Source of the DNA: an uncultured Chlamydiales bacterium
GTDB lineage: Bacteria > Chlamydiota > Chlamydiia > Chlamydiales > FEN-1388
Reading direction: 5' to 3'
Assembly (NCBI GenBank): GCA_963826935.1
Contig: CAWGYH010000002.1
Location: 712,028 to 776,027, forward strand
Length of the DNA stretch: 64,000 nucleotides
Shown: piece after piece, positions 34,926 through 60,296 of the stretch
How positions within the stretch are numbered: position 1 is the first letter of the stretch
Layout: every line of letters starts with the position of its first letter
The notes under the pieces: model-generated
Databases searched by the model: none
Told to the model about the DNA's origin: nothing
The model's input: the letters and a program-made list of their open reading frames with translations, nothing else
Translations under genes and position numbers: made by a program

Positions 34926-36408
34926 AGCTGTAGCTACAGTATTATCTTCTCTTTATAAAACCGACGATAAAGATCTTCACGCCTTTTTTAGCTATCTATC
35001 TGAAAGCTATAGCCAGGGACATCTCTTTGTCGAAAAAACAGACAAAGGGCTCATCCCCCATCTCGAAGAGCTTGATCGTGATGCAGCGTTAAAAGGCTAC
35101 GAAAAGCTTACAACTTCTCCCTATATTTTTGTTAAAGGTAATAGAGTCTATTTTGAACATGCCTACACACTCACATCCGAATGTCAGGCTCTTATAGAGA
35201 AGTTACAAACAAAAGCTCCCCATTTACACGTAGATCAAGTGCAGCTCTTAGCAAAAGTAGAAGCCCTGATTTGTGCAAAAACGCTACTTCCCGAGCAGGG
35301 CTCAGCAATTTGTGAAGCCTTAAAAAAATGCCTCTCCTGTATTTGGGGAGGGCCCGGAACCGGAAAAACCTATACCGCCGGCTGGCTTGTAAAGCTTTTC
35401 TTAGAAGATCACCCAAACGCACACATAGTACTTGCGGCCCCAACAGGCAAAGCTGCAGCCAACCTTCTGTCTAGCATTAATAAAGTGCTGCCAGGCGCAC
35501 CTCTTCAGGCAAAAACGCTCCATTCCCTGCTCGGCGTAAAGCGCATTGAAACAAAGCGAAAAAGAGAGGAGCTCCCCTACGACCTCATCTTAGTTGATGA
35601 AAGCTCGATGATCGACATAGCTCTTTATGTAAAGCTGCTTTACTCTGTTGCAGAGGGTGCCCGCATCATCTTTTTGGGCGACCCCTTTCAGCTTCCCCCC
35701 ATCGAGCCGGGCCAGCCCTTTGCAGACCTGGTCGCCGAACAGATCAAGAAGGGACTTCCAGGAGGCCTTGTAACAACTAAACGCCAAGAAAACCGCACCA
35801 TTGTCGACCTTGCCGAAGCTGTAAGAACGGGCCAAACAGATCAAGTTCTTTCCCATCTTCAGTCAAACCTGAAGCCAATAGATTCCTTAAATGTAAAGCA
35901 GCTGTACAACAACCCAGCCTCTACCGTGGAAAGCTTTTTTCAACTGCTCCTGGAAACACGCCTTCTCTCGCCCATGCGCCTGGGCCCCTACGGCACTCAA
36001 GTTATCAATCAACAAATGCTGGACGCCTCCAAAAGCCCATTCGAGCCTATCATCATAACGAGGAACGACTACACCCTAAACCTTACAAACGGCTCTATCG
36101 GCATCATCTTCGGCCCCTACGCCTACTTCGAAAACTACGAAACCCCAAACGTCCTTCGCAAAATCCCCAAAGTGCTCCTCTCTTCCTATGAAACGGCCTA
36201 CTGCCTCTCCGTCCACAAAAGCCAAGGCAGCGAATTTGGCAATGTCATCCTGCTTCTGCCCGAAGGCTCCGAACGCTTCGGCCGAAAGCTCCTCTACACC
36301 GCCATCACCCGCGCCAAAAAATCGCTCACCATCTACTCCACTCCCGCCATCATCTCCAATTGCCTTGAAACCTCACTTTATTCTACAATAACGCCCATGC
36401 CTGAATAG
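34918..36408 (+). CDS. recD: RecD-like SF1 helicase subunit
   Basis: Walker A WGGPGTGKTYT, LILVDESSMID, FLGDPFQLPP, SVHKSQGSEF, YTAITRAK. The ATG at 34918 overlaps the recB stop. The last 10 nt overlap tRNA-Thr. Confidence 0.85.
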   Translation: MNEAVATVLSSLYKTDDKDLHAFFSYLSESYSQGHLFVEKTDKGLIPHLEELDRDAALKGYEKLTTSPYIFVKGNRVYFEHAYTLTSECQALIEKLQTKAPHLHVDQVQLLAKVEALICAKTLLPEQGSAICEALKKCLSCIWGGPGTGKTYTAGWLVKLFLEDHPNAHIVLAAPTGKAAANLLSSINKVLPGAPLQAKTLHSLLGVKRIETKRKREELPYDLILVDESSMIDIALYVKLLYSVAEGARIIFLGDPFQLPPIEPGQPFADLVAEQIKKGLPGGLVTTKRQENRTIVDLAEAVRTGQTDQVLSHLQSNLKPIDSLNVKQLYNNPASTVESFFQLLLETRLLSPMRLGPYGTQVINQQMLDASKSPFEPIIITRNDYTLNLTNGSIGIIFGPYAYFENYETPNVLRKIPKVLLSSYETAYCLSVHKSQGSEFGNVILLLPEGSERFGRKLLYTAITRAKKSLTIYSTPAIISNCLETSLYSTITPMPE

Positions 36409-36471
36409 CTCAGTTGGTAGAGCAGCGCATTCGTAATGCGGAGGTCGTCGGTTCGACTCCGGCTTCAGGCA
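36399..36471 (+). tRNA. tRNA-Thr (anticodon CGT)
   Basis: Hand-folded: GCCTGAA-TA-GCTC-AGTTGGTA-GAGC-A-GCGCA-TTCGTAA-TGCGG-AGGTC-GTCGG-TTCGACT-CCGGC-TTCAGGC-A. Closely resembles the recalled E. coli thrW sequence. No encoded CCA. Confidence 0.9.
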
Positions 36472-36481
36472 TATTTTCAAG

Positions 36482-36518
36482 CCGTTTAAGGTTAAAAACT
36501 TAAACGGGTTTTGTTTTT
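36482..36518 (+). terminator. rho-independent terminator after tRNA-Thr
   Basis: Stem ccgtttaag / cttaaacgg with loop gttaaaaa, then gttttgttttt. Confidence 0.6.
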
Positions 36519-36544
36519 CTTAGATTTTTGAAAACGCGTGCCGT

Positions 36545-36563
36545 GGGGGAGTTTTGGGGGAAT
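36545..36563 (+). promoter_or_regulatory. paired GGGGGA(G/A)T motifs with 11-nt spacing near the island I left end
   Basis: gggggagt at 36545 and gggggaat at 36556. The same motif pair occurs at 44801/44812 and 49146/49157. Confidence 0.45.
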
Positions 36564-36608
36564 TGTCTGCAACAAATCATCACACAATACAACTACTTAC
36601 AGAATGGA

Positions 36609-36638
36609 TTGACTTGTCAGTCGCCCTCTTGCTATTTT
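36609..36638 (+). promoter_or_regulatory. candidate sigma70/66-type promoter of the AlbA_2 gene
   Basis: TTGACT, 18 nt, TATTTT, about 30 nt upstream of the RBS and ATG. Consensus match only. Confidence 0.35.
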
Positions 36639-36667
36639 CTTTCTGGACTGACTAACGACTGAGGTCA

Positions 36668-38305
36668 ATGATGAATGCACTGATAGATGAACTGTATGCC
36701 TGGATGAAACTACCTGAAAGTGCTCATCTTGAGTTTAAAGAAGCCAAAAGCAATTATGACAGTGAGAAGTTGACTCAATACTGCTGTGCACTTGCAAATG
36801 AAGGCGGTGGAAAGTTTATTTTAGGCGTATCAGATAAACCGCGTGCAATTGTGGGAAGTCAAGCATGTTCTAATTTAGAGAAAACGAAATCAGATCTAAT
36901 TACAAGGCTTCAGCTTCGAATTGAGGTAGATGAAATACATCCTGAAGGCAAAAGAGTTGTTATTTTCCATGTTCCTGCAAGGCCTATTGGAGTTCCTATT
37001 CAAATTAAGGGTTTATATTGGATGAGGCGAGGAGAGGAACTTGTGCATATGACTCAAGATATGCTCAAGAGAATCTTTGAGGAAGGAGTGCCTGATTTTT
37101 CTGCTCAAGTTTGCAAGCATGCAAAATTTGAGGATTTGGATTCTAAGGCCATCTCGCGGTTTCGTGAGTTGTGGCATAAACAGACTGGAAATGGAGCATT
37201 GAGAAACAGCTCTGATGAACAACTACTTAAGGATTGCGAAGCTGTTGTGCAAAAGGGTATTACATATGCCGCGCTCATACTATTTGGAACGTCGAAAGCC
37301 CTTGGAGAGCATCTTGCGCAAGCAGAAGTTGTTTTCGAGTACCGCTCAGGATATGTTATAGGGCCTGCGCAGCAGCGAGTAGAATATAGACAAGGATTTT
37401 TCTCATATTATGACGAACTTTGGGAAACGGTAAATCTGCGAAACGATATTCAGCATTTTCAGGACGGTCTTTTTATCTGGAAAATACCCACCTTCAATGA
37501 AAAAGTGGTTCGAGAAGCTGTCTTAAACGCTATTTCCCACCGTGATTATAGAGCTTCTGGTTCCATATGGGTAAAACAGTACCCCCGAAAAATTATTATT
37601 TCTAGCCCTGGCGGGCTCCCTCCGGGCATTACTCCTGAGAATATCCTTTGGAGGCAAGACCCGCGCAATAGACGAATTGCTGAGATTTTTTCTAAATGTG
37701 GGTTAGTTGAGAGAGCCGGTCAGGGCACAGATAGGATTTTTGAGGAAAGTATAAGACAGGGAAAATCCTTACCTGATTTTGCTCATACAGATGAATATCA
37801 AGTGGTATTGACATTGGATGGTGAAATTCAAGATGAGCGATTTTTGAGGTTTTTGGAAAAGGTAGGCAAGGAGAGAGTGGCCTCTTTTAGAACGGAGGAC
37901 TTTTTGGTTTTGGACTATGTACATAAGGAGCGACGTCTCCCTTCTGAACCCCCAGAGCTGAAAGTTCGTTTAAAGCAATTAGTTGATTTAGGCATTATTG
38001 AACAACTGGGCCGCGGGCGGGGCACTCGCTATATTCTTTGCCATCGTTTTTATGAAGAGATGGGCAGAAGCGCAGAATATACGAGAAAGCGAGGGCTTGA
38101 TAAGGAGACAAATAAGCAGCTTTTACTGAGCCATATTCACTCAAATGCCAAAATAGGAGCTAAATTTGCTGAGTTGACTCAGGTTTTGCCAATGCTTTCT
38201 CCTAACCAAGTCAAACAACTGGTTAAAGAGCTAAAGGCTCAGGGTAAAATCTGTTCAATGGGGAACACGAAGGCTAGTTTATGGTATCCGGTGGCTGAAG
38301 GGTAA
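36668..38305 (+). CDS. AlbA_2 (Schlafen-like) domain protein with a RecG-C-terminal-like HATPase_c_4/wHTH region
   Basis: N-terminal ESAHLEFKEAKSNYDSEKLTQYCCALANEGGGKFILGV (AlbA_2 signature). Central AVLNAISHRDYRASGSIWVKQYPRKIIISSPGGLPPGIT and NRRIAEIFSKCGLVERAGQGTDRI. A paralog lies at 52099-53727. Confidence 0.75.
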   Translation: MMNALIDELYAWMKLPESAHLEFKEAKSNYDSEKLTQYCCALANEGGGKFILGVSDKPRAIVGSQACSNLEKTKSDLITRLQLRIEVDEIHPEGKRVVIFHVPARPIGVPIQIKGLYWMRRGEELVHMTQDMLKRIFEEGVPDFSAQVCKHAKFEDLDSKAISRFRELWHKQTGNGALRNSSDEQLLKDCEAVVQKGITYAALILFGTSKALGEHLAQAEVVFEYRSGYVIGPAQQRVEYRQGFFSYYDELWETVNLRNDIQHFQDGLFIWKIPTFNEKVVREAVLNAISHRDYRASGSIWVKQYPRKIIISSPGGLPPGITPENILWRQDPRNRRIAEIFSKCGLVERAGQGTDRIFEESIRQGKSLPDFAHTDEYQVVLTLDGEIQDERFLRFLEKVGKERVASFRTEDFLVLDYVHKERRLPSEPPELKVRLKQLVDLGIIEQLGRGRGTRYILCHRFYEEMGRSAEYTRKRGLDKETNKQLLLSHIHSNAKIGAKFAELTQVLPMLSPNQVKQLVKELKAQGKICSMGNTKASLWYPVAEG

Positions 38306-38314
38306 TAATGGTTT

Positions 38315-45120: not shown

Positions 45121-45906
45121 ATGACCGTGAGAGGTGTTGGATTTGGATCATGTTGGCAACCGAAAATGGCTGATGCTACATCTAGAAATATGTTTGCAGT
45201 GGGCGTCAATCAAGGGTGGGTGGAGCTATCCAAAAATGGGGTTGTCATTGCTCAGGTGGAGTGCCAAAATAGAGAACGAAATTGCCTGATTGGAGATCCC
45301 CAATACGAACAAGACTGCTGCTACTTCACCTTAGTCGATCCGAAGGGCAAGAGGATAAGGGATCATTACTGCTTCAATTTCCATGGCTATATAAATAGAG
45401 TCGGATTTATGTTTTCGGATGATGTTGTGGTGCCGCAACCTCCACAACCTACTAGAACATTTACCTTGAGCAACGTAGAATATGGGCTGCACGTGGGTAA
45501 TGGAGCTATAGAAATCTCCAAAGATGGAGAGGCTATTGCACGCTTAGAATGCACAGACGAAGAGTATAGCCAATTTACAGGCATCACGCATGTCTATAAA
45601 GACTGCTTTTATTTCTTATTAGGGGATGAAAATGGAAAGTGGAAAAAACTTGCTCTCTTTAATCCTCAAACACATTTTTTTTCCCTGAGCGGGGCAGCAG
45701 TGTTTAATCCTCATTTTAAGGAGGATTGCTTGATCAGCGTGAGCTGTGGCGGTCGTGATGTACGCTTTGAAGATGTAATTTACAGATACCAGTTATTGCA
45801 AGGGCCATTCTTTTTACAAAAGCAGGAACACTGTATCACAGATGTTCGAGGCGTTCCTATTAAATATGTTAGACTTAATGATAGGGATAAAGAGCCTTTG
45901 AGGTAG
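45121..45906 (+). CDS. hypothetical protein with an internal tandem duplication
   Basis: 261 aa with two similar ~90-aa units (GWVELSKNGVVIAQVECQ...DCCYFTLVDPKGK and GAIEISKDGEAIARLECT...DCFYFLLGDENGK). Confidence 0.45.
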   Translation: MTVRGVGFGSCWQPKMADATSRNMFAVGVNQGWVELSKNGVVIAQVECQNRERNCLIGDPQYEQDCCYFTLVDPKGKRIRDHYCFNFHGYINRVGFMFSDDVVVPQPPQPTRTFTLSNVEYGLHVGNGAIEISKDGEAIARLECTDEEYSQFTGITHVYKDCFYFLLGDENGKWKKLALFNPQTHFFSLSGAAVFNPHFKEDCLISVSCGGRDVRFEDVIYRYQLLQGPFFLQKQEHCITDVRGVPIKYVRLNDRDKEPLR

Positions 45907-45928
45907 TGCATAGCTCAAGAATTAAATT

Positions 45929-46513
45929 ATGGATAAAGAAGAATACAAGAAAATCAGGAAAAATTTTCATGTCAACGATGATACCTTATTGTATGGGATA
46001 ACTCCTCGACTAGGTAAACATTTAGCGGAAAGATTCAAAGACATGTGCGTTTTAGAAACATGCACAGGAGCTGGATTTCTGACAATTGAACTCGCAAAGG
46101 TTGCCAAGAAGGTTATTACAGTCGATATTAATCTAGAAGCCCTAAATCAGGCTAAACACAATACCAAAATCGAGAATGTTGAGTCCAAGATCATTTTTCT
46201 TCAGGGAGATATTTTAAGTCAGAACATTTTAGATCAGATTCCTGCAATTGATGGAGCTATTTTAGATCCTGTTTGGAATCATCCAGACCTTACTCTTGCT
46301 CATATGTCTCCACCCGCTCCGTTGTTGTATGAAACAATTAAAAGAAAAACCGAAAACATTGCTTTAATATTGCCTCCTACAACTGAACAAAAATCTTTGG
46401 AATGTTTTCCAGAACATGAGCAAGAAATTCTTTACCTAGATGAAATTCCAGCCCTTATGTGCTTGTATTTCGGTCATTTGAAATGCTGCAGAAATAGTAA
46501 ATATCATGCTTAA
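45929..46513 (+). CDS. class I SAM-dependent methyltransferase (Methyltransf_15/TGS1-like)
   Basis: VLETCTGAGFLTIELAKVAKKVITVDIN (motif I plus the acidic post-I residue), FLQGDIL, ILDPVW (motif IV-like). Confidence 0.6.
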   Translation: MDKEEYKKIRKNFHVNDDTLLYGITPRLGKHLAERFKDMCVLETCTGAGFLTIELAKVAKKVITVDINLEALNQAKHNTKIENVESKIIFLQGDILSQNILDQIPAIDGAILDPVWNHPDLTLAHMSPPAPLLYETIKRKTENIALILPPTTEQKSLECFPEHEQEILYLDEIPALMCLYFGHLKCCRNSKYHA

Positions 46514-46605
46514 TAAATTTGGCTTGGGTGATGAGTGCATCAACTTGTCTAATTATACATTTTGATGTTAAACTCATACGTATTTTACGCAAGCAAAGAG
46601 GGTTT

Positions 46606-47066
46606 ATGAATGAATTCAGCGCTCATCCTGCCGGGGAAGAAAATCCAGGATTTCTTTGTGGCAAGTCAGCACATTATGGAGCAGCTCCACTGCAGCTGTT
46701 TTAAAATCATTCGGACTTAGCCATCCACAGTTTGTCATTCTCGCAACCATAGACTGGCTAAAAAATCAAGAGGCCAGCCAAGAGGCGATTGCAAGACACA
46801 TCATACTAGATCCCAAGCCTACCTCGCATCTGCTACGCAGTCTGCAAGTAAAAGGGCTGATCGAACCATCGAACATTTCTGATAAAAAAAGCAAATATCT
46901 ACTCACAATCGCTGGAGCCGAAATGTTGGCAAAAGTTTTGCCAGTAGTAGAGAGTGCCGATGCAGCCTTTTTTGCATCCATTGATCTAAAAAATTCGAAA
47001 ATGGTCACCTCATTGCAAATACTTGCACGCGCCAATCTCTCAAAAAAAGATGCAGATGCATTATAA
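46606..47066 (+). pseudogene. MarR-family regulator with an N-terminal frameshift
   Basis: The RBS-preceded ATG at 46606 gives MNEFSAHPAGEENPGFL. The MarR body (LWQVSTLWSS...GLSHPQFVILATI...) continues in another frame from about 46652. One extra t in tttcttt would join the two frames. Confidence 0.55.
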
Positions 47067-47102
47067 AGTAGAATTTGTCCTTTCTACTAGGTTTGAAATC
47101 AA

Positions 47103-47291
47103 TTGCCGTTATTGCGTTTAAAAGGAAAAGAGGGGTGGGGTGCAAAGACTCTGGAGAGGCTGTCTAAGGATATTATAAGGGACTTTCCAGATATATCAGG
47201 GTTTAGTGTGCGCAACCTTCAATATATGCGGAAATTTGCCGAATCTTACTCTGAGGTAAATTATGCAACAGCTGTTTCACTATTGCCTTAG
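47103..47291 (+). pseudogene. N-terminal fragment of a DUF1016 (YhcG-like nuclease) gene
   Basis: GWGAKTLERLSKDIIRDFPDISGFSVRNLQYMRKFAESY matches the DUF1016 N-terminal domain pattern. Only about 60 of the ~340 expected codons are present. Confidence 0.5.
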
Positions 47292-47420
47292 AGAGAGAAG
47301 CCTGCTCAGATAAAAAGGGCCGAGATCCTTGGCTTTACCCGTGCTAAGGCGCATCCTGGGCATGACGCTAATTAGTATCGCTCAGGATATCTTACAGGGC
47401 CTGCTCAATAGCTAATAAGA

Positions 47421-47520
47421 GATTTATTCAGCTGTACCAAAAAACAGTACAACTGAAATCTGAATCTTAAGAGCCCAAAAAATGCCACAGGCCGTGGTAT
47501 AAATTGATTCCCTGTCATTA
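47421..47520. repeat. ~95-nt conserved noncoding element, copy 1 (partner at 53983-54088)
   Basis: gatttat(t/c)cag(c/t)tgtaccaaaaa..gtacaactgaaat..gaatctta.gag...aaaa.tgccacag.c.gtgg.a.aaattga aligns by eye at roughly 85 percent. The overlapping ORFs are not conserved between the two copies. Confidence 0.75.
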
Positions 47521-47917
47521 TGGCGCCTACCTAAGGAGTGGGGAATGGAATTCCTAGGAGGGCTACCTGAGGGTGTAATAGCTTTCTTGCCCAAGATGAG
47601 GGAGTAATGCTTCACACAGCGTCTCTAGCGGGACATTGATCATACTATAAATAGAAATCCAGTCGTCAATGCTTTCTCTAAAAGACAATTTTTTTGCATT
47701 AGAAAATCCCTATTCAAGATTGCTTAAATAAGGGTCTCAGCTTAGATGATATTGTTCAAGCATTCTTGAATAATCGAACTTGAGCTGTACCATACTAGCC
47801 TTGTGGAGATCATGGGAAAAGCAATTCGTGCCATTCTTACACCGGGTCAGTTTTATCCGAAATTTTAAGGCAAATCACATAAACACTAAACCAAAATGTG
47901 TCTAATTTCTTGAAGAA

Positions 47918-48358
47918 CTAGGCTGGTTTTGCTGTGGGATGTTGTTGCAAAGCTGCAAGTGCCGCCTGATTGGTGGTAGCGTTTGCGATGGCTGCTTCTG
48001 CCTGGGTAAGTTCGTCTGTTGCTTTTCGTTGCTGGTAATAATCATAGATAAGCAGGCCTGCTCCGATTATTCCAAAGACAAGGGCGATTCCGAGAAGAGG
48101 GAAAGTGGCAGGAGTAACACCAACTAGGCCTAAAGTAATGCCAATTCCTATGAACAATCCCGCAGCAGAGCCAAAAAGTAGCAGCGCTGGCTGCGTCCAA
48201 CCTCTTTCCCAAAAACCTTTTATGCGGCTTTTTGCCTTTTCAGTATCGGCTAATTCACTCTTTACATGTGCCGAATCAGTTAATGTGGCGCCTTTTACAC
48301 TCTCGGCTGTGCTAGTTGGATGAAAGTGTGCAGTGCTGCTGCGTTTTGTTGGTTCCAT
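47918..48358 (-). CDS. small protein with a bilobed hydrophobic domain (paralog of 43568-44014)
   Basis: 146 aa with the same architecture. The N-terminal ~30 residues have diverged with indels, while the TM hairpin and C-terminus are conserved. Confidence 0.55.
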   Translation of the reverse strand: MEPTKRSSTAHFHPTSTAESVKGATLTDSAHVKSELADTEKAKSRIKGFWERGWTQPALLLFGSAAGLFIGIGITLGLVGVTPATFPLLGIALVFGIIGAGLLIYDYYQQRKATDELTQAEAAIANATTNQAALAALQQHPTAKPA

Positions 48359-48372
48359 AACAAGTTTCCTCC

Positions 48373-49062
48373 TTATAAAGAGAGCTTTAGTTTTTGCGCC
48401 TGGCTAGTAAAGGCGGCAAATTCGGGCTTATTTTGGTATTGCTGAATGGCGTTATGTAAGAGCTCGCGTGCTTTGTCTATTTCTTTTACTTGTTTTAAGC
48501 AGAGGGCGCTGTTGATGATGGGAAAGGGGTCGTTTTCATTATGTAGTAATGCGATGGCGTAGGCCATGACTGCAGTGTCGTAGCGTTTGTTATTTTCCTC
48601 ACACAGTCCTAATGCTTTCCAAAATGATGCCACAGTGGGATTAAGTACGCATAGAACGAGGAATACGTCAGCAGCGTCTCTGAAATTGTGATGGGCAAAT
48701 AGTTGTTGCCCTATTTCATAACAATGCGTCATATCGCCGTCAGAAATTTGAAGTTCTTTTTGTACTATCATTCCCTCTCTGATTTGTTGGGAATGATTCT
48801 GCTCCACAAACCGGCGCAGCTTTTTGCTATTTAAATGAGACAGCCCGTGAGCATTGTTTACGAGGATTTTCATGCCATGCTCAATACGAGTGCAGTAGTC
48901 TTTCCACCCATGCGCCATTTTTTCTTTAAGTTCGCTTTTGTAGGCATCGAGCGACTTAAATGGATTTTGTTTATAGGTTGTCTTAGCAATATCCGCTGCG
49001 ATTATCGCACATGATTCATCTAAGGGAATATCCTTATCGTCTACTTTGTGGCTTTTGCCCAT
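48373..49062 (-). CDS. T3SS class II (TPR) chaperone, LcrH/SycD family (paralog of 44029-44718)
   Basis: 229 aa, about nine-tenths identical by eye to the island I copy. Confidence 0.75.
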   Translation of the reverse strand: MGKSHKVDDKDIPLDESCAIIAADIAKTTYKQNPFKSLDAYKSELKEKMAHGWKDYCTRIEHGMKILVNNAHGLSHLNSKKLRRFVEQNHSQQIREGMIVQKELQISDGDMTHCYEIGQQLFAHHNFRDAADVFLVLCVLNPTVASFWKALGLCEENNKRYDTAVMAYAIALLHNENDPFPIINSALCLKQVKEIDKARELLHNAIQQYQNKPEFAAFTSQAQKLKLSL

Positions 49063-49336
49063 AAGGCGTATCCTCCGATACTATCTTGTCTTTACCTTAT
49101 ATTAATATTTATTTTAATTTATTGTCACCCCATTTCTTCAGGTGTGGGGGAATGCTGGAGGAATTTCTCACAAAAATAGGCGTACAATACAAAAGATGGC
49201 AAGAACTTGTTATTTTATAAAATGCTTAATTACAATGAGATGGGTACTGCTATGAAAGGGGCCGGATACTGCGATTTAAGTGAGCATTCGGTCTCGGTTC
49301 CGTGTGTAAAGTTCTTATTTCTCCTTGTAGAGGCAT

Positions 49337-49365
49337 TTGACAGAATTGTGGAACATTGGTATCGT
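49337..49365 (+). promoter_or_regulatory. candidate sigma70/66-type promoter
   Basis: TTGACA, 17 nt, TATCGT, about 45 nt upstream of the ATG at 49409. Consensus match only. Confidence 0.4.
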
Positions 49366-49408
49366 TGATATCGTTTGATTCTAAAACAAATTAAATCGAT
49401 GGTATTTT

Positions 49409-49804
49409 ATGCAACCAGCAATTCCAGTTGTTACATCTGTTCAATCAGAAGCATTTATTGTGCAATTAGGACTTACAAATCCAAAAATTGATGACTTTAA
49501 CCTAATCAAGCTATTCAACTGCACAACTCACAAGGTGGAGGTCGCTGCAGGAAAGTGCATCAAGGTCGACGATAGAACTATCCAGAAGCCTAATGGTGGT
49601 TTTGATCCGGGGGCTTCTTATGGGCTAGAGGCCTATCCAACATTTGACTGGGATGTTCTTATATATGAAGCAACTTGTCTTGCTGTACAGGCAAGAGGGG
49701 ATAAACTCAAGATTTCCTGGAGAAATGCAAACAATTCTCAGGCCATGCTTCACACAGCAGAGTTTACATTTGCGCAAAAGTTTAATTGCTGGCTTCATGC
49801 GTAG
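49409..49804 (+). CDS. hypothetical protein
   Basis: 131-aa ORF with no recognisable domain. Confidence 0.4.
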   Translation: MQPAIPVVTSVQSEAFIVQLGLTNPKIDDFNLIKLFNCTTHKVEVAAGKCIKVDDRTIQKPNGGFDPGASYGLEAYPTFDWDVLIYEATCLAVQARGDKLKISWRNANNSQAMLHTAEFTFAQKFNCWLHA

Positions 49805-49960
49805 GCACATCCACTAACCACTTCTTTGCCTCTTCGTCCGTTAGCTATTTGTGGTTTTGGATGAGGATGCGTATTTGGGGAGTCGGAGTCTCGAGATTCC
49901 GGCTCCTTTCATTTTCTATCCGTCTTTAATCGGTAAGCAAAGCGTTGTAAAAGGGGCCAG

Positions 49961-50031
49961 GTAAAAGGGGCCGGGGTCTGCGATGTGCGATTCGTCTCAA
50001 ATTGCACATAGCAGACTCCGGCTCCTTTCAC
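49961..50031 (+). repeat. long imperfect hairpin, member of a local repeat family
   Basis: aaaggggccggggtctgcgatgtgcgatt / aattgcacatagcagactccggctccttt. Related units occur at 49254-49305, 49878-49915 and 51867-51930. Confidence 0.7.
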
Positions 50032-50168
50032 TGAAGAGTGGCTAAAGTGCTTTTCACGCAAAGGCAATATTTTGGGCCCATAAATCCATCGACATGATAT
50101 GATTGGCTCGACTTTGCAGCAAAGTCGAGATTAATCCTCAAATGAAGTAATAGTCGGAGATATAGCCT

Positions 50169-51089
50169 GTGGCTGATTTTGGAAAAATTTCATGGGGTCC
50201 AACAACTCCTGATCAGGCCCATTTGCCAAAAAAAATTAATGATGAAAAGCTTTTCGATAGTTTCTGTGAAATAGCGCAAGAAAAAGTCCCAGGGACTCAT
50301 CTGCTGCATCAATTTAAGGTTTTACAGGAGGAGATGACCCAGTTAAAAGCCAACCATGAAAAGTTTGTTGATACTATAACCACAGTCCCTTTTATATCCT
50401 CTTTTTTGCTTTGGATAAGTGAAGTTTCTAAGGATAATCCCTCGATCATTGATATTGCAAAAGCCCTTCTCCAAAATGATTTCATAGGAACCTATGACAA
50501 CTCAGGTAAAGTGTGGACTATGGAGTCCGCAAAGAACTTTGATCATCAAAAAATCCTGTCTGCAATACGGAGCACGCGTGCATGGACAATTAGACGAAGA
50601 GAGGCCGCTGTAGGTGCATACATAGGCTTCATGAACTGGTTATCCACTGCAACCTATGGATACATGGCCGGTTTAAGCGATCAAGACCCAATTACAGTCA
50701 GGAAGAGATTATTAAGCTTCTCAAAGTTCCTTGATTTTTTAGACGCACTGCCAAACGAAAAATCTCAGCTCGTGGCAAAACTTCTCTATTTTGGAGGAGA
50801 TCGAACACTCGACCCGGTTTTAAACTTAACAATCGAATGTGTTAATTTTGACCAATTATCTGTTGCTTGGAATAGACCAGGGCGCGATTCTGATGTTACG
50901 TACTATCCAGAACACGTTTTCAATGATATAAAGGCCCTCATAGGTAACCGTCGACACGGAAAAATATTTCTGGGAAACCAGAATCAACTCCTAAGCGATG
51001 TGACAATTTTCAGACATTTTAATGAGGCCTCGAAAAAAGCATTAGGATCGTCATTTGGTCCCAAGAAGTTGACCACCAATAAATTATAA
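50169..51089 (+). CDS. hypothetical protein, possibly a degenerate tyrosine-recombinase-like protein
   Basis: 306 aa with a GTG start. LLYFGGDRTLDPVLNLTIECVNF resembles the integrase box containing the first catalytic Arg, and IFRHFNEA resembles the HxxR region. No C-terminal Tyr motif is present. Confidence 0.35.
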   Translation: MADFGKISWGPTTPDQAHLPKKINDEKLFDSFCEIAQEKVPGTHLLHQFKVLQEEMTQLKANHEKFVDTITTVPFISSFLLWISEVSKDNPSIIDIAKALLQNDFIGTYDNSGKVWTMESAKNFDHQKILSAIRSTRAWTIRRREAAVGAYIGFMNWLSTATYGYMAGLSDQDPITVRKRLLSFSKFLDFLDALPNEKSQLVAKLLYFGGDRTLDPVLNLTIECVNFDQLSVAWNRPGRDSDVTYYPEHVFNDIKALIGNRRHGKIFLGNQNQLLSDVTIFRHFNEASKKALGSSFGPKKLTTNKL

Positions 51090-51199
51090 ATCGGTTTTTA
51101 TCAAAAAACCTACACTTTATGTAACCAAAAACAGAAAAAAGTTGCATTAAATCACAAGATCTCGCTACATTTCCTTAAGTGGTGCAAAAGTTAGGATGT

Positions 51200-51230
51200 A
51201 AAAAAAAAGCCCTACGCTGAAACGTAGGGC
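51200..51230 (-). terminator. hairpin plus U-run (minus-strand sense), an orphan or bidirectional terminator
   Basis: gccctacg-ctgaaa-cgtagggc preceded by a9 on the plus strand (a t9 run after the hairpin on the minus strand). No convincing minus-strand gene lies upstream. Confidence 0.35.
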
Positions 51231-51292
51231 ACCTAAATTGAATCACATTTCAGAGCTAAACCTACAAACATGACTCAATAGAGGAAAAAACT

Positions 51293-51868
51293 ATGTTACC
51301 AAACCAAGACAATAGTTCCAAAACAATTTCGCTGTTAGAAATGGCTCGCGAGGACGGCCTAAGACCCGAAAAAGTACCAAACAGCACAAAATCCAAGTGT
51401 ATTTCCTTTTGCCCGGGATGCTGCGGGGAAAATACATTTATCATTTGGGATGTTGATAACCAGTACTACTGCACACAATGCCGGAGGAGAGGCGATCCCA
51501 TACAGTACCTTCGAGACTTTCATGCCATGTCGTACAATGAAGCGTGTACAGCGTTAGGCATGTTTCCGAGGACTACTTCAAGCACGCGTCTTTGGAAAGA
51601 GCCATGCCAAGATGGCTGCTTTCCTTTACCAAATAAACCCATTGTTTTACTCGACTCAGAACTAGAAGCACTAACCGTAGAAAAATTTGCAGGAGACCTT
51701 TGCGTCCCCATTTCTTTGGGCAACATCCCTCCCCTCATTTTAATCTCCGTTCAAACACAAACTCTAGAATGGCCATTAGCTATCGTTTCGCCAGGCATTG
51801 AAATCAGAAGGCAGATTTTAAAAGGAATTCGCTACGGCCTAAAACAGCGACCGATTGCGTCCGGATAA
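51293..51868 (+). CDS. CHC2-like zinc-finger protein (primase N-terminal-domain-like, no catalytic domain)
   Basis: CISFCPGCCGENTFIIWDVDNQYYCTQCRRRGDPIQYLRDFHAMSYNEACTALG follows the DnaG/P4-primase zinc-finger pattern. The remaining ~100 aa are not primase-like. Confidence 0.5.
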   Translation: MLPNQDNSSKTISLLEMAREDGLRPEKVPNSTKSKCISFCPGCCGENTFIIWDVDNQYYCTQCRRRGDPIQYLRDFHAMSYNEACTALGMFPRTTSSTRLWKEPCQDGCFPLPNKPIVLLDSELEALTVEKFAGDLCVPISLGNIPPLILISVQTQTLEWPLAIVSPGIEIRRQILKGIRYGLKQRPIASG

Positions 51869-51930
51869 AAGCGGACGGCTCCTGCAATGTGTGATTCGGT
51901 AAATCGCACATTGCAGGGCACGGCTTTTTC
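51867..51930 (+). terminator. terminator-like hairpin (member of the local hairpin family)
   Basis: cctgcaatgtgtgatt-cggt-aaatcgcacattgcagg, extended by aaaagc/gctttt and followed by a T run. It begins at the stop codon of the preceding ORF (51866-51868). Confidence 0.5.
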
Positions 51931-52037
51931 ATTGTCAACTATTTGAGCGAGTGGGGTGCTCAAAGCGGCTGATTCCTACTCTGCAGCAGTTTGTGCAGCA
52001 ACTGCTGCGCAAATCTTAAAAATATCTGCAGAAGAAA

Positions 52038-52067
52038 TTGACACCCCTGGGCTGCTCTTGTTATGTT
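52038..52067 (+). promoter_or_regulatory. candidate promoter of the second AlbA_2 gene
   Basis: TTGACA, 18 nt, TATGTT. This is the same architecture as upstream of the island I paralog. Confidence 0.35.
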
Positions 52068-52098
52068 TGTGGACGTATTCTTAGCTTGGAGGCTGCTA

Positions 52099-53727
52099 AT
52101 GACTTTGCTTATGGATGAACTGCATACCTGGATGAAATTGCCTGAAAGCGAACATCTTGAGTTCAAAGAGGCAAAAAATGGCTTTGATTCCGATCGGCTA
52201 ACCAAATATTGCTGTGCACTTGCTAATGAAAAAGGCGGCCACTTAATTCTCGGAGTGACCGATAAACGGCCTCGCAAGGTTGTGGGGACTCATGCATTCG
52301 CAAATTTAGAAAAGACAAAATCAGACCTGATGCGCAGGCTGCCTCTGAGAATCGAAATTGATGAAGTGGTCGTAGATGATCATCGTGTGCTTATTTTTGC
52401 CATCCCGTCCAGACCAATAGGCGTGCCTATTCAGTACGAGGATAAGTACTGGATGCGCCGTGGTGAAGAGATGGTTTCGATGACTCCGGACATGCTCAAG
52501 CGTATTTTTATGGAGGCAGAACCTGATTTCTCGGCCCAGATTTGTCCCGAGGCCACGATCGAAGACCTTGATAGTAAGTCTATTGATGTTTTTCGGCAGA
52601 TGTGGATCTATAAAACAGGTAATCATAATCTAAAGAGGCTTTCGGATAAGCAGCTTCTGAAGGATATTGGCGCAATTGTTGATACCAAAATAACCTATGC
52701 AGCACTCATCCTCTTTGGAAAACCCAAGTCGCTTAGAAAGTTCCTCGCCCAGGCAGAAGTGGTCTTTGAGTATCGCTCAAGTGGTGTTACGGGCCCTGCC
52801 CAGCAAAGGATCGAATATACACAAGGGTTTTTCTCATTTTATGATGAATTGTGGGAAAAGATTAATCTAAGAAACGACCTACAGCACTTCCAAGATGGGT
52901 TATTTGTCTGGGACATCCCTACATTTAATGAAAAAGCTATTCGAGAAGCTGTCTTGAACGCTGTAAGCCACCGTGAGTATAGAGCGGGAGGGTCGGTTTG
53001 GGTCAAGCAATATCCTCGTAAGATTGTCATTGCCAGTCCAGGTGGGTTTCTTACGGGAATTACCCCGTCTAATATGCTTTGGAAGCAACATCCGCGCAAC
53101 CGTATGATTGCTGATATATTTAACAAATGCGGACTTGTTGAACGGGCAGGACAAGGTGCAGATCGAATTTTTGAGGAGAGTATCCGGCAAGGAAAGCCTT
53201 TACCGGACTTTTCACACACCGATGACTATGAGGTAGTGTTAACCTTGGATGGCCAGATACAAGACGAAGGCTTTCTTCGATTTTTAGAGAAGATTGGTCA
53301 AGAGCGGTTGGCGTCATTTAATACGGAAGACTTTTTGGTCCTGGATCTTGTTCATAACGAACGGCCTATTCCTTCTTCACCACCAGAATTAAAATTCCGC
53401 CTTAATCATTTAGTCGATTTAGGCATCGTTGAACGCATTGGTAAAGGCCGTGGCGCACGATATATGCTTTGCCAGCAGTATTACACTTTGGCGGGCAAAA
53501 GCGGCGTATACACAAGAAAACGTGGCTTAGATAAAGAGACAAGTAAAGAACTGTTATATAAACATCTCCGTGCTAACGCAAAAAATGGTTCAAAATTTAA
53601 TGCGTTACAACAGGTTTTGCCTTTTCTTTCTAGAAGTCAGGTGCAAAAACTGCTTATAGAGTTAAAGTCGGAAAATAAAATTTACCTCGAAGGCAAGACT
53701 AGTGCAAGCACCTGGTTTCCAGGTTGA
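52099..53727 (+). CDS. AlbA_2 (Schlafen-like) domain protein with a RecG-C-terminal-like region (paralog of 36668-38305)
   Basis: MTLLMDELHTWMKLPESEHLEFKEAKNGFDSDRLTKYCCALANEKGGHLILGV... is collinear with the island I protein over its full length. Start moved to the ATG at 52099 (ggagg 6 nt upstream). Confidence 0.75.
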   Translation: MTLLMDELHTWMKLPESEHLEFKEAKNGFDSDRLTKYCCALANEKGGHLILGVTDKRPRKVVGTHAFANLEKTKSDLMRRLPLRIEIDEVVVDDHRVLIFAIPSRPIGVPIQYEDKYWMRRGEEMVSMTPDMLKRIFMEAEPDFSAQICPEATIEDLDSKSIDVFRQMWIYKTGNHNLKRLSDKQLLKDIGAIVDTKITYAALILFGKPKSLRKFLAQAEVVFEYRSSGVTGPAQQRIEYTQGFFSFYDELWEKINLRNDLQHFQDGLFVWDIPTFNEKAIREAVLNAVSHREYRAGGSVWVKQYPRKIVIASPGGFLTGITPSNMLWKQHPRNRMIADIFNKCGLVERAGQGADRIFEESIRQGKPLPDFSHTDDYEVVLTLDGQIQDEGFLRFLEKIGQERLASFNTEDFLVLDLVHNERPIPSSPPELKFRLNHLVDLGIVERIGKGRGARYMLCQQYYTLAGKSGVYTRKRGLDKETSKELLYKHLRANAKNGSKFNALQQVLPFLSRSQVQKLLIELKSENKIYLEGKTSASTWFPG

Positions 53728-53740
53728 ATCCAACAAACTA

Positions 53741-53925
53741 TGGAGCAAGTTTGGAGCAAGATCGGAGCAAGTTTATGGTGATTGACTGATAAAAATACCC
53801 TCTTCAGCTATGCTAAAGCCAGAAAACATCAAAATGGATTTGGAGCAAGCCTGTGTAATTCGGAGCAATTCTGGCGTAATTCACCCAGGTAGAAATGCGC
53901 TTGAGCTGTGAAATTCTGGCGCAAA
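53741..53925 (+). repeat. 11-bp-period direct repeats (T/C)GGAGCAAG plus AATTC-N5-6 units
   Basis: tggagcaag at 53741 and 53752, cggagcaag at 53763 (period 11). Further copies at 53841 and 53861. aattc at 53857, 53867 and 53878, and gaaattctggcgcaaattt at 53910. The array begins 14 nt after the AlbA_2 stop. Confidence 0.8.
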
Positions 53926-53982
53926 TTTAACTCAGGTTTACCCAAGATTGACAGAGCCTTATGATCTAGTGAGTAATGAGGG

Positions 53983-54088
53983 ATTTATCCAGTTGTACCA
54001 AAAAGCGGTACAACTGAAATGAGAATCTTATGAGTGAGCCTACTAAAAAGTGCCACAGACTGTGGCACAAATTGACTGCCTTGTTAAG
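53983..54088. repeat. ~95-nt conserved noncoding element, copy 2
   Basis: See 47421-47520. Contains the perfect palindrome gtgccacag-a-ctgtggcac and the hairpin cagttgtac/gtacaactg. Confidence 0.75.
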
Positions 54089-54170
54089 CAGGCGAAGCAT
54101 TGTCCGGCTCTTATAAGCCAACAGCTTAAGGGAGTACGTCGGTTATTATTGGATTGACTGGGCTTCTCCC

Positions 54171-54212
54171 GCATTCGTAATGGGGGCGTCAGTTCGGCTC
54201 CGGCTTCAGGCA
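54171..54212 (+). repeat. degenerate third copy of the tRNA-Thr 3' part (distal att remnant)
   Basis: gcattcgtaatgggggcgtcagttcggctccggcttcaggca versus gcattcgtaatgcggaggtcgtcggttcgactccggcttcaggca. Same orientation, with a 3-nt deletion and several substitutions. Confidence 0.7.
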
Positions 54213-54279
54213 TTTTTTTATATTGTACCTTCGGAGAGCTCTGTGAATTACGCAACAGCTGCTGCGCAAATTCTCTAGG

Positions 54280-54534
54280 CTAGAACTTAAAGTGTACAAA
54301 AATACGGCCGAAGTTTTTGCTGTCTTTTTCTATGCGGTGATAGAGCTGTTTAATTTCTTTGCGTTCTAGAAAGCGAAGTACGGTCTTTTTAAGCTGACCG
54401 CTCCCTTTACCTGGAATGATTTCTACAAGCGTGATCTTTTCTTCTACTGCCTGATAGATCACGCGTTGCAGCTCAGCCTCAATAGCTTTGCCTTTATTAA
54501 ATAACTCATGAAGATCTAGTTTGATTTTTGCCAT
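54280..54534 (-). CDS. Smr-domain protein
   Basis: 84 aa. LDLHELF...LVEIIPGKGSGQLKKTVLRFL is typical of small MutS-related (Smr) domains. Confidence 0.75.
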   Translation of the reverse strand: MAKIKLDLHELFNKGKAIEAELQRVIYQAVEEKITLVEIIPGKGSGQLKKTVLRFLERKEIKQLYHRIEKDSKNFGRIFVHFKF

Positions 54535-54605: not shown

Positions 54606-55013
54606 TTAAATACTGGTATCGCTAACCTCGTCGCTATGGTAGAGCCACTTGCCGGCGGTTTTTACGAAGCGGCTTTTTTCTTCGAAGGAACAGTCGTTTC
54701 CGCTTTGGGTAAGGTGCGCTTTGAAGTGGACGAAGGCTTCTGTTTCTCCATTTTGGAAGCTTAGGATGTCAAGGCCTGTGAAATTAGTGGTGTGGCAGAA
54801 CTGGAGGAGGTCGGCTTCGATCTTGCTTTGGCTCTTTTTGAAAAGGGGGTTTGAGGGGTGGGTGGTTTGGATGAGGTAGTGGATGAGGCCTTTGGCGTAG
54901 GCGCTGTAGCGCGAGCGCATAAGCTCTAGCGCTGTTTTGGGCAGGGATATGCCCTTGTGAAAGGGCTCGCAGCAGAGGCTGTAGAGTTTTTTGCTGTGGC
55001 ATGGGCAGATCAT
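54606..55013 (-). CDS. YchJ-family (UPF0225) SEC-C-motif protein
   Basis: N-terminal CPCHSKKLYSLCCEPFHKG and YchJ-like length (135 aa). Confidence 0.75.
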   Translation of the reverse strand: MICPCHSKKLYSLCCEPFHKGISLPKTALELMRSRYSAYAKGLIHYLIQTTHPSNPLFKKSQSKIEADLLQFCHTTNFTGLDILSFQNGETEAFVHFKAHLTQSGNDCSFEEKSRFVKTAGKWLYHSDEVSDTSI

Positions 55014-55876
55014 ATAATTAACCTATGTTGAAATCCTGCAAGGCTTAGGAGGCCTCCGGAGTGGATAAAGAGGACAGGGCCTTTTAGGGCTTGATCTTGC
55101 AGGAGTTTTTCAAGGAGCAAGTAGAGCTTTGCTGAATATATTGGATCAAGTAAAACGCCCTCATACTGTGCTGTGCGAGTTATTGTTTTAAAAATTGTGC
55201 TGTTTGTGGAGCCGAAGGATTTTGCCGTTGTTGGAGTATAGATAGTGGCGTTTGTCTGATCTTGCAAGGTAAAGGGAGCAAGCTGGAGGACATGTATGCG
55301 GGCATTTTTTTGCAGCTTGCGAAATGTTGTGATAAGGCTTTGGGCGGTGGTGCCGGTGCCTGCATCTATGAGGATATCGTTAAAGATGCAGCCGGCCTCC
55401 TTTTCATTTTCCAGGATGTCGTAGGCAAGCGTTGCAAGGCCTTCAGCTACTTCTGGGCAGGCAGCGCCTTCCGGGACGAGATAGGCATTATTTTCTTTTG
55501 CCCAAGAGCCGGCAATAGCGTTTACTTCGTGCCAGGAGGTTCTTGGTATGGTGTGGATCTGTTTTTTTGGGACGAAGAGCTGTATGAAGAGTCCGATTCC
55601 TTGCGGCTTTTCTTTTGACTCTAGTAAAAAGAGGGTGGGCTCTATGCCATTTTCGATGAGAAGGGATGCAAGGCCTAAGATGTTATTTGAGGAGCTGCTT
55701 CCTATAAGGGCTACCTTCTTGCAGCCTTTATTTAGTATGTGAGGGATGAGGGATTGATATTTTCTTAGTTTTGTGCCCGATACCACGCAGCCAAGCTCAT
55801 CTTCGCGCTTTATGTAGCAAGGGATGTTGTAGCGCTGGCCAATTTTTAGGCGATGGACTCTTGAGTGAATAGGCAT
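55010..55876 (-). CDS. PLP-dependent ACC deaminase / D-cysteine desulfhydrase family protein
   Basis: KREDELGCVVSGTKLRKYQSL (PLP-Lys context GxKxRK), a glycine-rich loop, and family-typical length. Confidence 0.7.
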   Translation of the reverse strand: MPIHSRVHRLKIGQRYNIPCYIKREDELGCVVSGTKLRKYQSLIPHILNKGCKKVALIGSSSSNNILGLASLLIENGIEPTLFLLESKEKPQGIGLFIQLFVPKKQIHTIPRTSWHEVNAIAGSWAKENNAYLVPEGAACPEVAEGLATLAYDILENEKEAGCIFNDILIDAGTGTTAQSLITTFRKLQKNARIHVLQLAPFTLQDQTNATIYTPTTAKSFGSTNSTIFKTITRTAQYEGVLLDPIYSAKLYLLLEKLLQDQALKGPVLFIHSGGLLSLAGFQHRLII

Positions 55877-55914
55877 ATCTTCGCTATAGTTTTGGCTCTT
55901 TTACGGTGGTTATT

Positions 55915-56940: not shown

Positions 56941-57490
56941 ATTCATTCGCAATATTAACAAAACCGGTGCCATTACCTGCTGTTCTGAAGAGGTGGCAAA
57001 TGCTCTTGCTTCTAAAGCTAATCTAGCAAGGGCTAAAACCGTTGTAGAGCTTGGTTCCGGAACTGGTGCAATCACAGAAAAAATCTTAGAAAATCTCCAA
57101 AAAGATGCCCTTTTTCTAGCTTTAGAGCTTAACGAGCACTTCGTTGAAGAGACAAAAAAGCGCTGCCCCGCAGCCAACGTCTATCACGATACAGCGGAAA
57201 ATGTAAAAATATACCTCAATAAGCATGGCCAAGAGACCTGCGACTGCGTTATTTCGACACTTCCCTGGACCCTTTTTGATAAAGAATTGCAAGAGAGCAT
57301 CTTAAACGCCATTTGGGATGTACTGCCGGAAGGCGGCGAATTTCTTACTGTAGCCTATACATTTGCTCCGCTTCTTCCCGGAGGCAAGCGCTTTAAAAAC
57401 CTTATCCAAAAACGCTTTGCTCACGTAACAAGAACAAAACCTATCTGGAAAAACCTCCCTCCTGTATATGTCTATTATTGTAAAAAATAG
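56930..57490 (+). CDS. class I SAM-dependent methyltransferase (COG3963 phospholipid N-methyltransferase-like)
   Basis: FIRNINKTGAITCCSEEVANALA...VVELGSGTGAITEKIL. GTG start with ggagg upstream. Confidence 0.7.
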   Translation: MVDRFIRNINKTGAITCCSEEVANALASKANLARAKTVVELGSGTGAITEKILENLQKDALFLALELNEHFVEETKKRCPAANVYHDTAENVKIYLNKHGQETCDCVISTLPWTLFDKELQESILNAIWDVLPEGGEFLTVAYTFAPLLPGGKRFKNLIQKRFAHVTRTKPIWKNLPPVYVYYCKK

Positions 57491-57501
57491 TAGGCAAATC
57501 G

Positions 57502-60263: not shown

Positions 60264-60296
60264 TCGGCTAGTTTCAAGCTGCTTCGTGAAATTTCA

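Follow-up and report, generated by a model that had tools for sequence, protein, structure and literature searches.

Probable tandem accumulation of integrative elements targeting the 3' part of the tRNA-Thr(CGT) gene of a chlamydia-like bacterium

Introduction

In the genome of an uncultured Chlamydiales bacterium, the 3' part of the tRNA-Thr(CGT) gene recurs downstream of the gene itself, and the roughly 18 kb enclosed by the repeats raise the question of what was inserted there, how often, and whether any of it still moves. The locus lies in a stretch of 64,000 nt, hereafter the window (GenBank assembly GCA_963826935.1, contig CAWGYH010000002.1, positions 712,028 to 776,027 of the forward strand), and all coordinates count from its first nucleotide unless a comparison locus is named. 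The initial annotation, made from the sequence, had read the region as repeated integration into one tRNA gene followed by decay of the older element. We compared the window with related loci, metagenome loci and contigs, numbered with the prefix L. Very probably, integrative elements with the 3' part of the tRNA gene as their specific target have accumulated here in tandem, with an integrase-bearing proximal unit of 8.5 kb (36472-44999) next to the tRNA and a distal part of 9.2 kb (45000-54212) beyond it. The earlier reading was supported in outline, although more than one older event appears to be recorded and intact genes remain in the distal part.

Attachment-site repeats and integrase

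Attachment-site (att) copy 1 was taken to be the 43 nt that begin in the anticodon loop of the tRNA and extend to its 3' end (36429-36471). An exact-word search found two plus-strand copies of this 43-mer in the window, starting at 36429 and 44957, where shuffled sequences gave an expectation of 0; the exact recurrence claimed in the initial annotation was thereby confirmed, and copies 1 and 2 stayed identical across 50 nt save for one mismatch. The third, degenerate copy that had been described, with a 3-nt deletion and substitutions, was recovered both by blastn and by alignment (54170-54218, 85-88% identity, E ~2e-9). Compared with the 43 nt, it was shorter by 3 nt and carried 2 substitutions. 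All three copies aligned with one another in a single orientation, as had been proposed. Direct repeats of the tRNA 3' part were thus present at both ends while the tRNA gene was intact, which is the arrangement of a tRNA-targeting island. The left flank of copy 3 was similar to the left flank of an attR in L011. Just 3' of the tRNA, a hairpin with a T-run (Table 1) looks like a terminator supplied by the element.

Extra att copies within the distal part or between the AlbA_2 and integrase genes were considered and rejected, since similarity was no better than chance in a word-7 blastn search and in local alignments with shuffles at 38.3-38.7, 47.5-47.9 and 49.2-49.5 kb.

The tyrosine integrase encoded in the proximal unit had a complete catalytic domain, in which the R, HxxR, H and Y motifs were readable in the translation. 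Its counterparts in L011, L012 and L015 were 67-77% identical and aligned with it over the full length. With the Pfam coverage given in Table 1, these alignments and motifs bore out the earlier description of an intact integrase gene.

A motif, TATTGTGTTG, occurred twice, 30 bp apart, just before the integrase start, both in the window (38582-38621) and in L012 (9936-9977); the two integrases that share it were 75% identical. It is possibly a conserved promoter or operator of the integrase gene.

Table 1. Coordinates of the features of the array and its flanks in the window.
Feature	Coordinates	Strand	Basis or remark
recD, left core flank	34918..36408	+	homologues with RecD-type helicase domains; recC-recB-recD-tRNA synteny in L004-L006, L011, L012, L015
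tRNA-Thr(CGT), integration target	36398..36472	+	ARAGORN; Rfam tRNA, 66.3 bits
Hairpin and T-run just 3' of tRNA, within island	36479..36510	+	self-complementary match, sequence reading
TGGGGGART pair, 11 bp apart, ~75 bp right of att copy 1	36544..36563	+	
545-aa AlbA_2 (Schlafen-type) + HATPase_c_4 protein, cargo between attL and integrase gene	36668..38305	+	Pfam E 3e-14, 3e-15
TGACCYAAT array, four at 11-bp spacing plus one more copy, between AlbA_2 and integrase genes	38316..38414	+	
Tyrosine integrase, 357 aa from ATG (open reading frame opens at 38614)	38647..39720	+	Pfam Phage_integrase E 3e-32, positions 2-171/172; phrog_1 E 6e-64
230-aa protein, position conserved, fast-evolving	39720..40412	+	31-34% identity to same-position proteins in L011, L012
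80-aa winged-helix protein	40745..40987	+	conserved in L006, L011, L012, L015
117-aa winged helix-turn-helix core protein (HTH_39-like)	40980..41333	+	49-60% identity to L011, L012, L015
DUF3987 helicase gene	41337..42826	+	Pfam DUF3987, positions 2-67 and 72-363 of 364; phrog_2373 DNA helicase E 1e-49
210-aa Cys-rich protein, cargo	42841..43473	-	39% identity to 187-aa protein in L015 element
148-aa protein with one ~50-aa hydrophobic block, cargo beside chaperone gene	43568..44014	-	hydropathy analysis
229-aa tetratricopeptide repeat (TPR) protein, SycD/LcrH-like type III secretion chaperone domain, cargo	44029..44718	-	
TGGGGGAAT pair, 11 bp apart, ~140 bp left of att copy 2	44800..44819	+	
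att copy 2, exact 43-nt tRNA 3' copy, proximal/distal boundary	44957..44999	+	
Three open reading frames: 261 aa; 194-aa S-adenosylmethionine (SAM) methyltransferase; 136-aa MarR-like	45121..47066	+	Pfam
Third AlbA_2 remnant (44 nt) fused to sequence found 3' of the 554-aa copy	47374..47513	+	
1.4-kb paralogue (88% nt) of proximal right end	47843..49251	-	
Decayed/truncated tyrosine recombinase, 306 aa	50169..51089	+	NCBIfam XerA, positions 93-207/263 only, E 2e-6
Primase stub, 191 aa, limited to CHC2 zinc ribbon	51293..51868	+	Pfam Zn_ribbon_DnaG E 6.8e-5, below cut-off
AlbA_2 + HATPase_c_4 protein, second full-length copy of 554 aa (68% identity to first)	52063..53727	+	Pfam; also on Logan contig L002
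GGAGCAAG-type repeats directly 3' of second AlbA_2 gene: three spaced by 11 bp, with additional copies	53742..53879	+	
att copy 3, degenerate tRNA 3' copy, outer limit of array	54170..54212	+	
smr, right core flank	54280-54534	-	Pfam
ychJ, right core flank	54606-55013	-	Pfam
PALP enzyme, right core flank	55010-55876	-	Pfam

State of the site in related genomes

Core genes flanked the array on both sides as the initial annotation had stated, with recB and recD on the left and smr and ychJ, together with a PALP enzyme gene, on the right. The order recC-recB-recD-tRNA-Thr(CGT) was retained in some form at all six related loci, the tRNA being truncated in L011, and the DNA that followed it varied. 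In L005, a single beta-helix gene separated the tRNA from right-flank orthologues (PALP enzyme, C39 peptidase and methyltransferase, with 55-78% amino acid identity to 55019-57487), so that the site was near-empty. L006 carried a different integrase island directly after the tRNA, comprising an integrase 38% identical to that of the window, a homologue, at 43% identity, of the 80-aa protein, then an AAA_25 protein and type I restriction-modification cargo, and L004 held unrelated cargo. The core module of the proximal unit occupied the same tRNA in L011, L012/L013 and L015. The search of related genomes that the initial annotation had suggested, for an empty junction or for different cargo, thus found a near-empty one as well as other cargo, and the 18 kb did not behave as invariant core; the relatives with a near-empty or differently occupied site were only 53-58% identical to the window in RecD, none of them belonging to the same species. 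The closest named homologues of the window RecD, itself encoded on a 1.6-Mb contig, were labelled Chlamydiales, Chlamydiia or Parachlamydiaceae. Because the nearest of its relatives was only 58% identical, the lineage is poorly sampled and comparison within the species was impossible.

Two of the comparison loci showed peculiarities of the tRNA itself. The tRNA of L006 (11463-11537) has CCTGT instead of CCGGC in its 3' T-stem, creating a mismatch, and its 3' half may have been supplied by the element there. At 9960-10016 of L011, a deletion has truncated tRNA-Thr(CGT) at nucleotide 58, joining it directly to the integrase gene near codon 7 and destroying both; ARAGORN found no tRNA at this junction, although two copies of the 3' part persist downstream.

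Distribution of the element family

The block from the integrase gene to the DUF3987 gene followed recD and tRNA-Thr directly, in the same gene order, in L011, L012/L013 and L015. Between the same pairs of genomes, identity was 67-77% for the integrase and 42-69% for DUF3987, as against 34-39% for RecD and 30-37% for RecB (30-39% over both), and the nearest relatives of the window (RecD 53-58%) were without the element. This pattern is better matched by transfer between distant hosts than by vertical inheritance, but it falls short of proof, since the integrase family as such is unusually conserved; the integrase was ~60% identical to proteins of Nitrosomonas, Methylococcaceae and Nitrospirae. 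A scan with the integrase of a genome collection that evidently did not contain the source genome returned only four loci, all non-chlamydial.

Several relatives were also bounded by repeats. In L015, a 57-nt repeat lay 7.5 kb downstream of the tRNA. An exact 45-nt repeat delimited a complete element of 11.4 kb at tRNA-Thr(CGT) in L038 (array 5856-19842), and beyond the attR of that element a deleted AlbA_2 gene was fused to the same downstream sequence as in the window, at 80-82% identity. Two further att copies in L011 made that locus a tandem array, as did two downstream repeats at tRNA-Leu(TAA) in L031 (4625-14112). A metagenome scan with the DUF3987 alignment found the same architecture at tRNA-Asn, Phe, Met, Leu, Lys, Tyr, Gly and Thr. 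Where such a locus had a downstream repeat, the repeat started at tRNA nucleotide 23-32 and reached the 3' end or a few nucleotides beyond (10 of 10 loci), which indicated that the att repeats of the window have the usual form for the family.

Core genes and short repeats of the proximal unit

The DUF3987 gene, which the initial annotation had called intact, appeared in the window sequence as two open reading frames (ORFs), 41337-41684 (115 aa) and 41684-42826 (380 aa), split at a run of eight A residues (A8, 41670-41677; context CAT AAA AAA AAG AGC TGA, 41667-41684). One additional A would yield a protein colinear with its relatives of 494-497 aa. A contig from another sample, L014, also had A8. 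A Logan contig from Illumina run ERR10755938, L098, was 99.92% identical to the window over 38344-43522 and had nine A residues (A9) and a single 496-aa ORF. The split is most likely a homopolymer miscall, or slippage or length polymorphism, and not decay; a real frameshift, or programmed frameshifting at a -1 slippery site (A AAA AAG), is less likely given the A9 run and the intact gene in L098. The gene is therefore probably intact biologically, despite the interruption in the assembled sequence. Other apparent frameshifts in the source assembly may have the same homopolymer cause.

The small protein labelled xis-like in the initial annotation, 80 aa long, was 66-74% identical to its counterparts in L011, L012 and L015, and by itself it had no match in sequence searches of Pfam, PHROG or PDB. 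Its family numbered 766 representatives (E up to 0.001); among 60 members sampled, 17 gave weak matches to HTH_17 (PF12728; best E 0.0015). An AlphaFold2 model based on a multiple sequence alignment (pLDDT 86.7) showed a β-α-α-β-β-α winged-helix fold, and its top Foldseek match by probability and TM-score was Tn916 Xis (1y6u), with a non-significant E of 0.41. The label thus drew weak backing from family and fold and none from the protein's own sequence, and a role as an excisionase or AlpA-like recombination directionality factor is predicted as likely but unproven. The neighbouring 117-aa protein belongs to a family in which 3 of 4 members weakly matched HTH_39 (best E 6.6e-4). Profiles of the 80-aa and 117-aa proteins retrieved nothing meaningful in a sequence search of PDB, and for the 230-aa protein no family match was found in Pfam, NCBIfam or PHROGs.

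The motif TGGGGGART occurred five times in the 64 kb, against 0.76 expected, and all occurrences lay in the island, the fifth of them (49145-49153) in the duplicated block of the distal part. L015 had a similar pair, TTTGGGGGAT twice, beside its tRNA (9555-9575). The pairs are likely to be arm-type sites of the integrase, and their presence on both sides indicated that neither arm of the proximal unit is damaged. The unit looks complete, with its two arms, each bearing a candidate pair of arm sites, an intact integrase, the probable excisionase, the winged helix-turn-helix protein, the DUF3987 helicase and cargo at both ends.

Cargo and its variation

The leftmost cargo gene encodes the 545-aa AlbA_2 protein. 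A known defence system was rejected as its identity, as PADLOC matched the AlbA_2 proteins only at domain level, through shared domains. Every AlbA_2 gene or remnant seen (two in the window, one each in L034 and L038) was directly trailed by an array of short repeats whose leading 3-4 copies were spaced by 11 bp. All five occurrences of TGACCYAAT in the window lay in 38316-38414, and the motif also stood 3' of the L034 AlbA_2 gene (6805-6926); the GGAGCAAG motif likewise stood 3' of the AlbA_2 remnant in L038 (19709-19846). These arrays appear iteron- or operator-like.

At the right end, the 229-aa TPR protein matched NCBIfam TIGR02552 (E 3.9e-26, 91.4 bits, under the cut-off of 104.8, positions 2-135/136) and, like its distal copy, carried an N-terminal extension of ~94 aa. 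In a word-index search of 5.8 billion proteins, it matched only its own two copies. In both cases, the gene that follows encodes a small protein containing one long hydrophobic block. The pairs presumably resemble chlamydial chaperone/translocator or chaperone/inclusion-membrane-protein pairs, a likeness that we take only as a lead. No family match was found for the 210-aa Cys-rich protein in Pfam or NCBIfam.

Near-identical copies of the element (~99.5% and ~99.9%, both outside AlbA_2) were present in at least two other samples, one of them with a swapped AlbA_2 allele. The latter, L014, was a contig of 8508 bp spanning exactly 36472-44961, between exact att copies, and was ~99.5% identical to the window from 38.2 kb onward. 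Its AlbA_2 region (1-1850, corresponding to 36472-38220) had only ~75% nucleotide identity and, in the N-terminal part, ~60% protein identity, and represented a third allele distinct from both window copies. The replacement of this gene in an otherwise near-identical element indicated that the position between attL and the integrase gene is a replaceable slot; the slot held two small unrelated genes in L012 and none in L015. The L014 allele had broken reading frames, and long-read noise may account for its frameshifts. A further diverged patch in L014 lay at the 3' end of the integrase gene (window ~39472-39730).

Two other contigs ended at the repeats. Logan contig L097 was 100% identical to 44957-46096, beginning at the first base of the att repeat and reading through its right edge into the distal part, and L003 ended inside the tRNA anticodon (window 36433). 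Such ends could mean mixed junctions in the sample or merely sharing of the tRNA among species, and because of this ambiguity the use of Logan contig ends to infer presence or absence of the element was dropped.

Composition of the distal part

The initial annotation described the distal 9.2 kb as holding only decayed mobility genes and pseudogenes. Decayed mobility genes were indeed present. The 306-aa recombinase remnant had no Pfam match and lacked the C-terminal HxxR...Y region in its translation, and the 191-aa primase stub matched PHROG DNA primase profiles of 577-667 positions at E 4e-4. The claim failed in its "only", as the distal part also held full-length ORFs, some of them under purifying selection. 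These included two of unassigned family beside the methyltransferase and the MarR-like ORF; the methyltransferase matched PADLOC mad2 at domain level only.

The 1.4-kb block encodes a 146-aa membrane protein (47918-48358) and a 229-aa chaperone-like protein (48373-49062), contains one TGGGGGAAT site at 49145, and loses its similarity to the proximal right end 50 bp before the expected att position. Between the proximal and distal copies, dN/dS was 0.20 for the chaperone pair (dS 0.31) and 0.53 for the membrane-protein pair (148 and 146 aa, 72% identical), which indicated that both copies of the chaperone and membrane-protein genes are apparently maintained by selection. In the AlbA_2 remnant, 47374-47417 was 82% identical to 37338-37381, and 47413-47513 was 79% identical to 53974-54081.

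Three structures resembling the right end of an element were thus present, at ~47.5, 49.25 and 54.2 kb: the AlbA_2 remnant (47374-47513), the 1.4-kb block, and the 554-aa AlbA_2 gene with its downstream sequence and att copy 3. From these, the array appears to record at least three and probably four integrations, with the loss of two internal att copies.

Beyond the array, a second tRNA gene in the window, Pro(GGG), lay at 7646-7722 on the minus strand. Another variable spot was observed to the right, where the methyltransferase and ABC transporter genes that are adjacent in L005 (17230-17365) were separated in the window by ~6 kb of extra DNA (57490-63769) encoding a hydrolase, a 620-aa protein and a phosphoribosyltransferase.

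Discussion

The arrangement described above can be explained by a series of events. The attP of the element would duplicate the tRNA stretch from the anticodon loop to the 3' end, and the tyrosine integrase would recombine it with the tRNA gene, so that the tRNA is rebuilt and the displaced 3' part becomes the direct repeat at the far end. A newcomer integrating at the intact tRNA would push older elements outward, which would make the proximal unit the youngest arrival. After excision, the DUF3987 helicase and the winged helix-turn-helix protein may serve replication. The distal 9.2 kb would be the leftovers of at least two or three older related elements whose internal att copies were deleted, and as it is without a working integrase, it would be movable only through the integrase of its neighbour, in the style of a cis-mobilizable element.

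Several observations weigh against this reading. As assembled, the window has a frameshift in the helicase gene, and the Xis-like label draws on weak family-level matches and a non-significant fold match. The comparison of composition proposed in the initial annotation did separate the island from its flanks (tetranucleotide distance 0.0195 vs 0.0156; GC 0.44 and 0.42 vs 0.455), but the contrast was modest and the sliding windows overlapped. For this strain, neither an excised circle nor an attP junction nor a restored empty site was observed, Logan contigs being uninformative because they break in or near the repeats. Lastly, the interior of the distal part was without att remnants, and the count of older events was drawn from homologous right ends.

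The alternative that survives best is that the array is immobile today, a set of fossil insertions kept for useful cargo, in which the exact repeat persists through a living tRNA and a young insertion. The frameshifted helicase in the window and L014, the lack of observed junction variants and the purifying selection on distal cargo are all consistent with this, and the fusion of tRNA and integrase by deletion in L011 illustrates how fixation can occur. Against it stand the intact state of the integrase, the small proteins, the two arms and the two exact core copies, the unbroken helicase gene of the short-read contig L098, and the finding of near-identical copies in two or more further samples, AlbA_2 being swapped in one of them. 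We regard immobility as a serious possibility, though on balance somewhat less probable than the contrary.

Conjugative systems are known in environmental chlamydiae, and the proximal unit might instead be an integrative mobilizable element (IME) that is moved by a conjugative system encoded elsewhere and has accreted onto decayed elements. Tandem accretion of IMEs, ICEs (integrative and conjugative elements) and CIMEs (cis-mobilizable elements) at tRNA 3' ends, of the ICESt1/ICESt3 type, is a standard pattern (PMC5704250). As in such accretion, the window has three direct att copies, an integrase-bearing element adjoining att-bounded DNA without an integrase, an intact target gene at one end and, at the opposite one, the copy that is oldest and most degenerate. 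The distal 9.2 kb itself has the structure of a CIME, lying between att copies 2 and 3 without a functional integrase and next to an element with the cognate one; the degeneracy of copy 3 may block its recombination. The array differs from ICE/CIME accretion in that no conjugation or mobilization module was found and in that its distal part is a mosaic without internal att copies. Among island ORFs of at least 80 aa scanned with Pfam, NCBIfam and PHROGs, five of which were left unassigned, there was no relaxase, oriT-associated protein, coupling protein, type IV secretion system or capsid gene. The markers of an ICE or IME were thus not found, and we consider mobilization of this kind a tentative and rather doubtful explanation.

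An internal origin of the repeated segments was also weighed, in which the similarities of the 1.4-kb block and of the AlbA_2 genes arose by segmental duplication inside one large island. The block is not bounded by att copies, ending 50 bp short, and internal att remnants were not found, both of which would suit a duplication. Divergence between the copies is nevertheless high (dS 0.31 between the chaperone genes, saturated between the AlbA_2 genes), and each copy sits at the right-end position of an element, with an arm site or downstream sequence. In L038, at the same tRNA, a complete element has such an AlbA_2 remnant with its downstream sequence on the far side of its attR. Duplication within one island is therefore unlikely, and less likely than separate integrations, which we prefer.

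Least probable is that the proximal unit is a phage satellite of the PICMI or P4 kind, using its own integrase, AlpA-like protein and DUF3987 and spreading in helper-phage particles. Known chlamydial phages are small single-stranded DNA microviruses, and we know of no suitable double-stranded DNA helper phage for chlamydiae, which weighs against a satellite. P4-like and CP4-57-type elements have the arrangement int-alpA-yfjI[DUF3987], and the proximal unit shares with them the order integrase, small regulator and DUF3987 as well as a target in the 3' part of a small-RNA gene; unlike in P4, no psu, delta, sid or cos-related functions were found in the island ORFs with Pfam, NCBIfam and PHROGs. 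Pfam and PHROGs likewise revealed no P4 or PICI marker and no capsid, packaging or redirecting gene, and one scan of viral contigs gave no relative of the helicase. PICMI satellites combine an integrase, AlpA (PF05930/PF12728) and a DUF3987/DUF5906 primase and are integrated beside fis (PMC10803314). The minimal core of the proximal unit, with a small helix-turn-helix protein in the place of AlpA, would correspond to these three functions, DUF3987 being part of the PICMI search model, and the small size (7.5-8.5 kb) and the variable cargo, resembling defence domains at domain level, are shared features. The target here is a tRNA and not the neighbourhood of fis, the 80-aa protein fell below the AlpA/HTH_17 thresholds, and neither a helper phage nor viral-contig relatives were found. 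A DUF3987 protein has also been described as AgaPH (PriCT-DUF3987), a 5'-3' helicase from a module associated with prokaryotic Argonaute proteins in a tRNA-integrated mobile element (PMC11724360). The proximal unit is similar in having a DUF3987 gene near an integrase in a tRNA-integrated element, and differs in having neither a primase-polymerase partner nor PriCT; a CHC2 zinc ribbon was found only in the distal stub.

Conclusions

Tandem tRNA islands are textbook knowledge, and the architecture of the array in itself teaches little. What the comparison adds is evidence that small integrative elements were exchanged among deeply divergent chlamydia-like lineages and landed in the same tRNA. 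Two kinds of cargo are worth following: the SycD/LcrH-like chaperone with its membrane protein, present as two diverged copies under purifying selection, and the AlbA_2 genes with their trailing 11-bp-spaced arrays, of which one allele was swapped between near-identical elements.

More speculatively, the proximal unit could still be active and belong to an undescribed, minimal family of integrative, self-replicating elements that move among distant chlamydia-like bacteria, always into tRNA-Thr(CGT), ferrying chaperone and membrane-effector cassettes and swappable AlbA_2 genes. We think this full proposal is more probably wrong than right and put it forward tentatively. The defined pair of integrase and att site could in any case be tried as an integration tool in chlamydia-like bacteria, and if the family is indeed active, it would provide a natural site-specific integration system for an obligate intracellular group that has few genetic tools.

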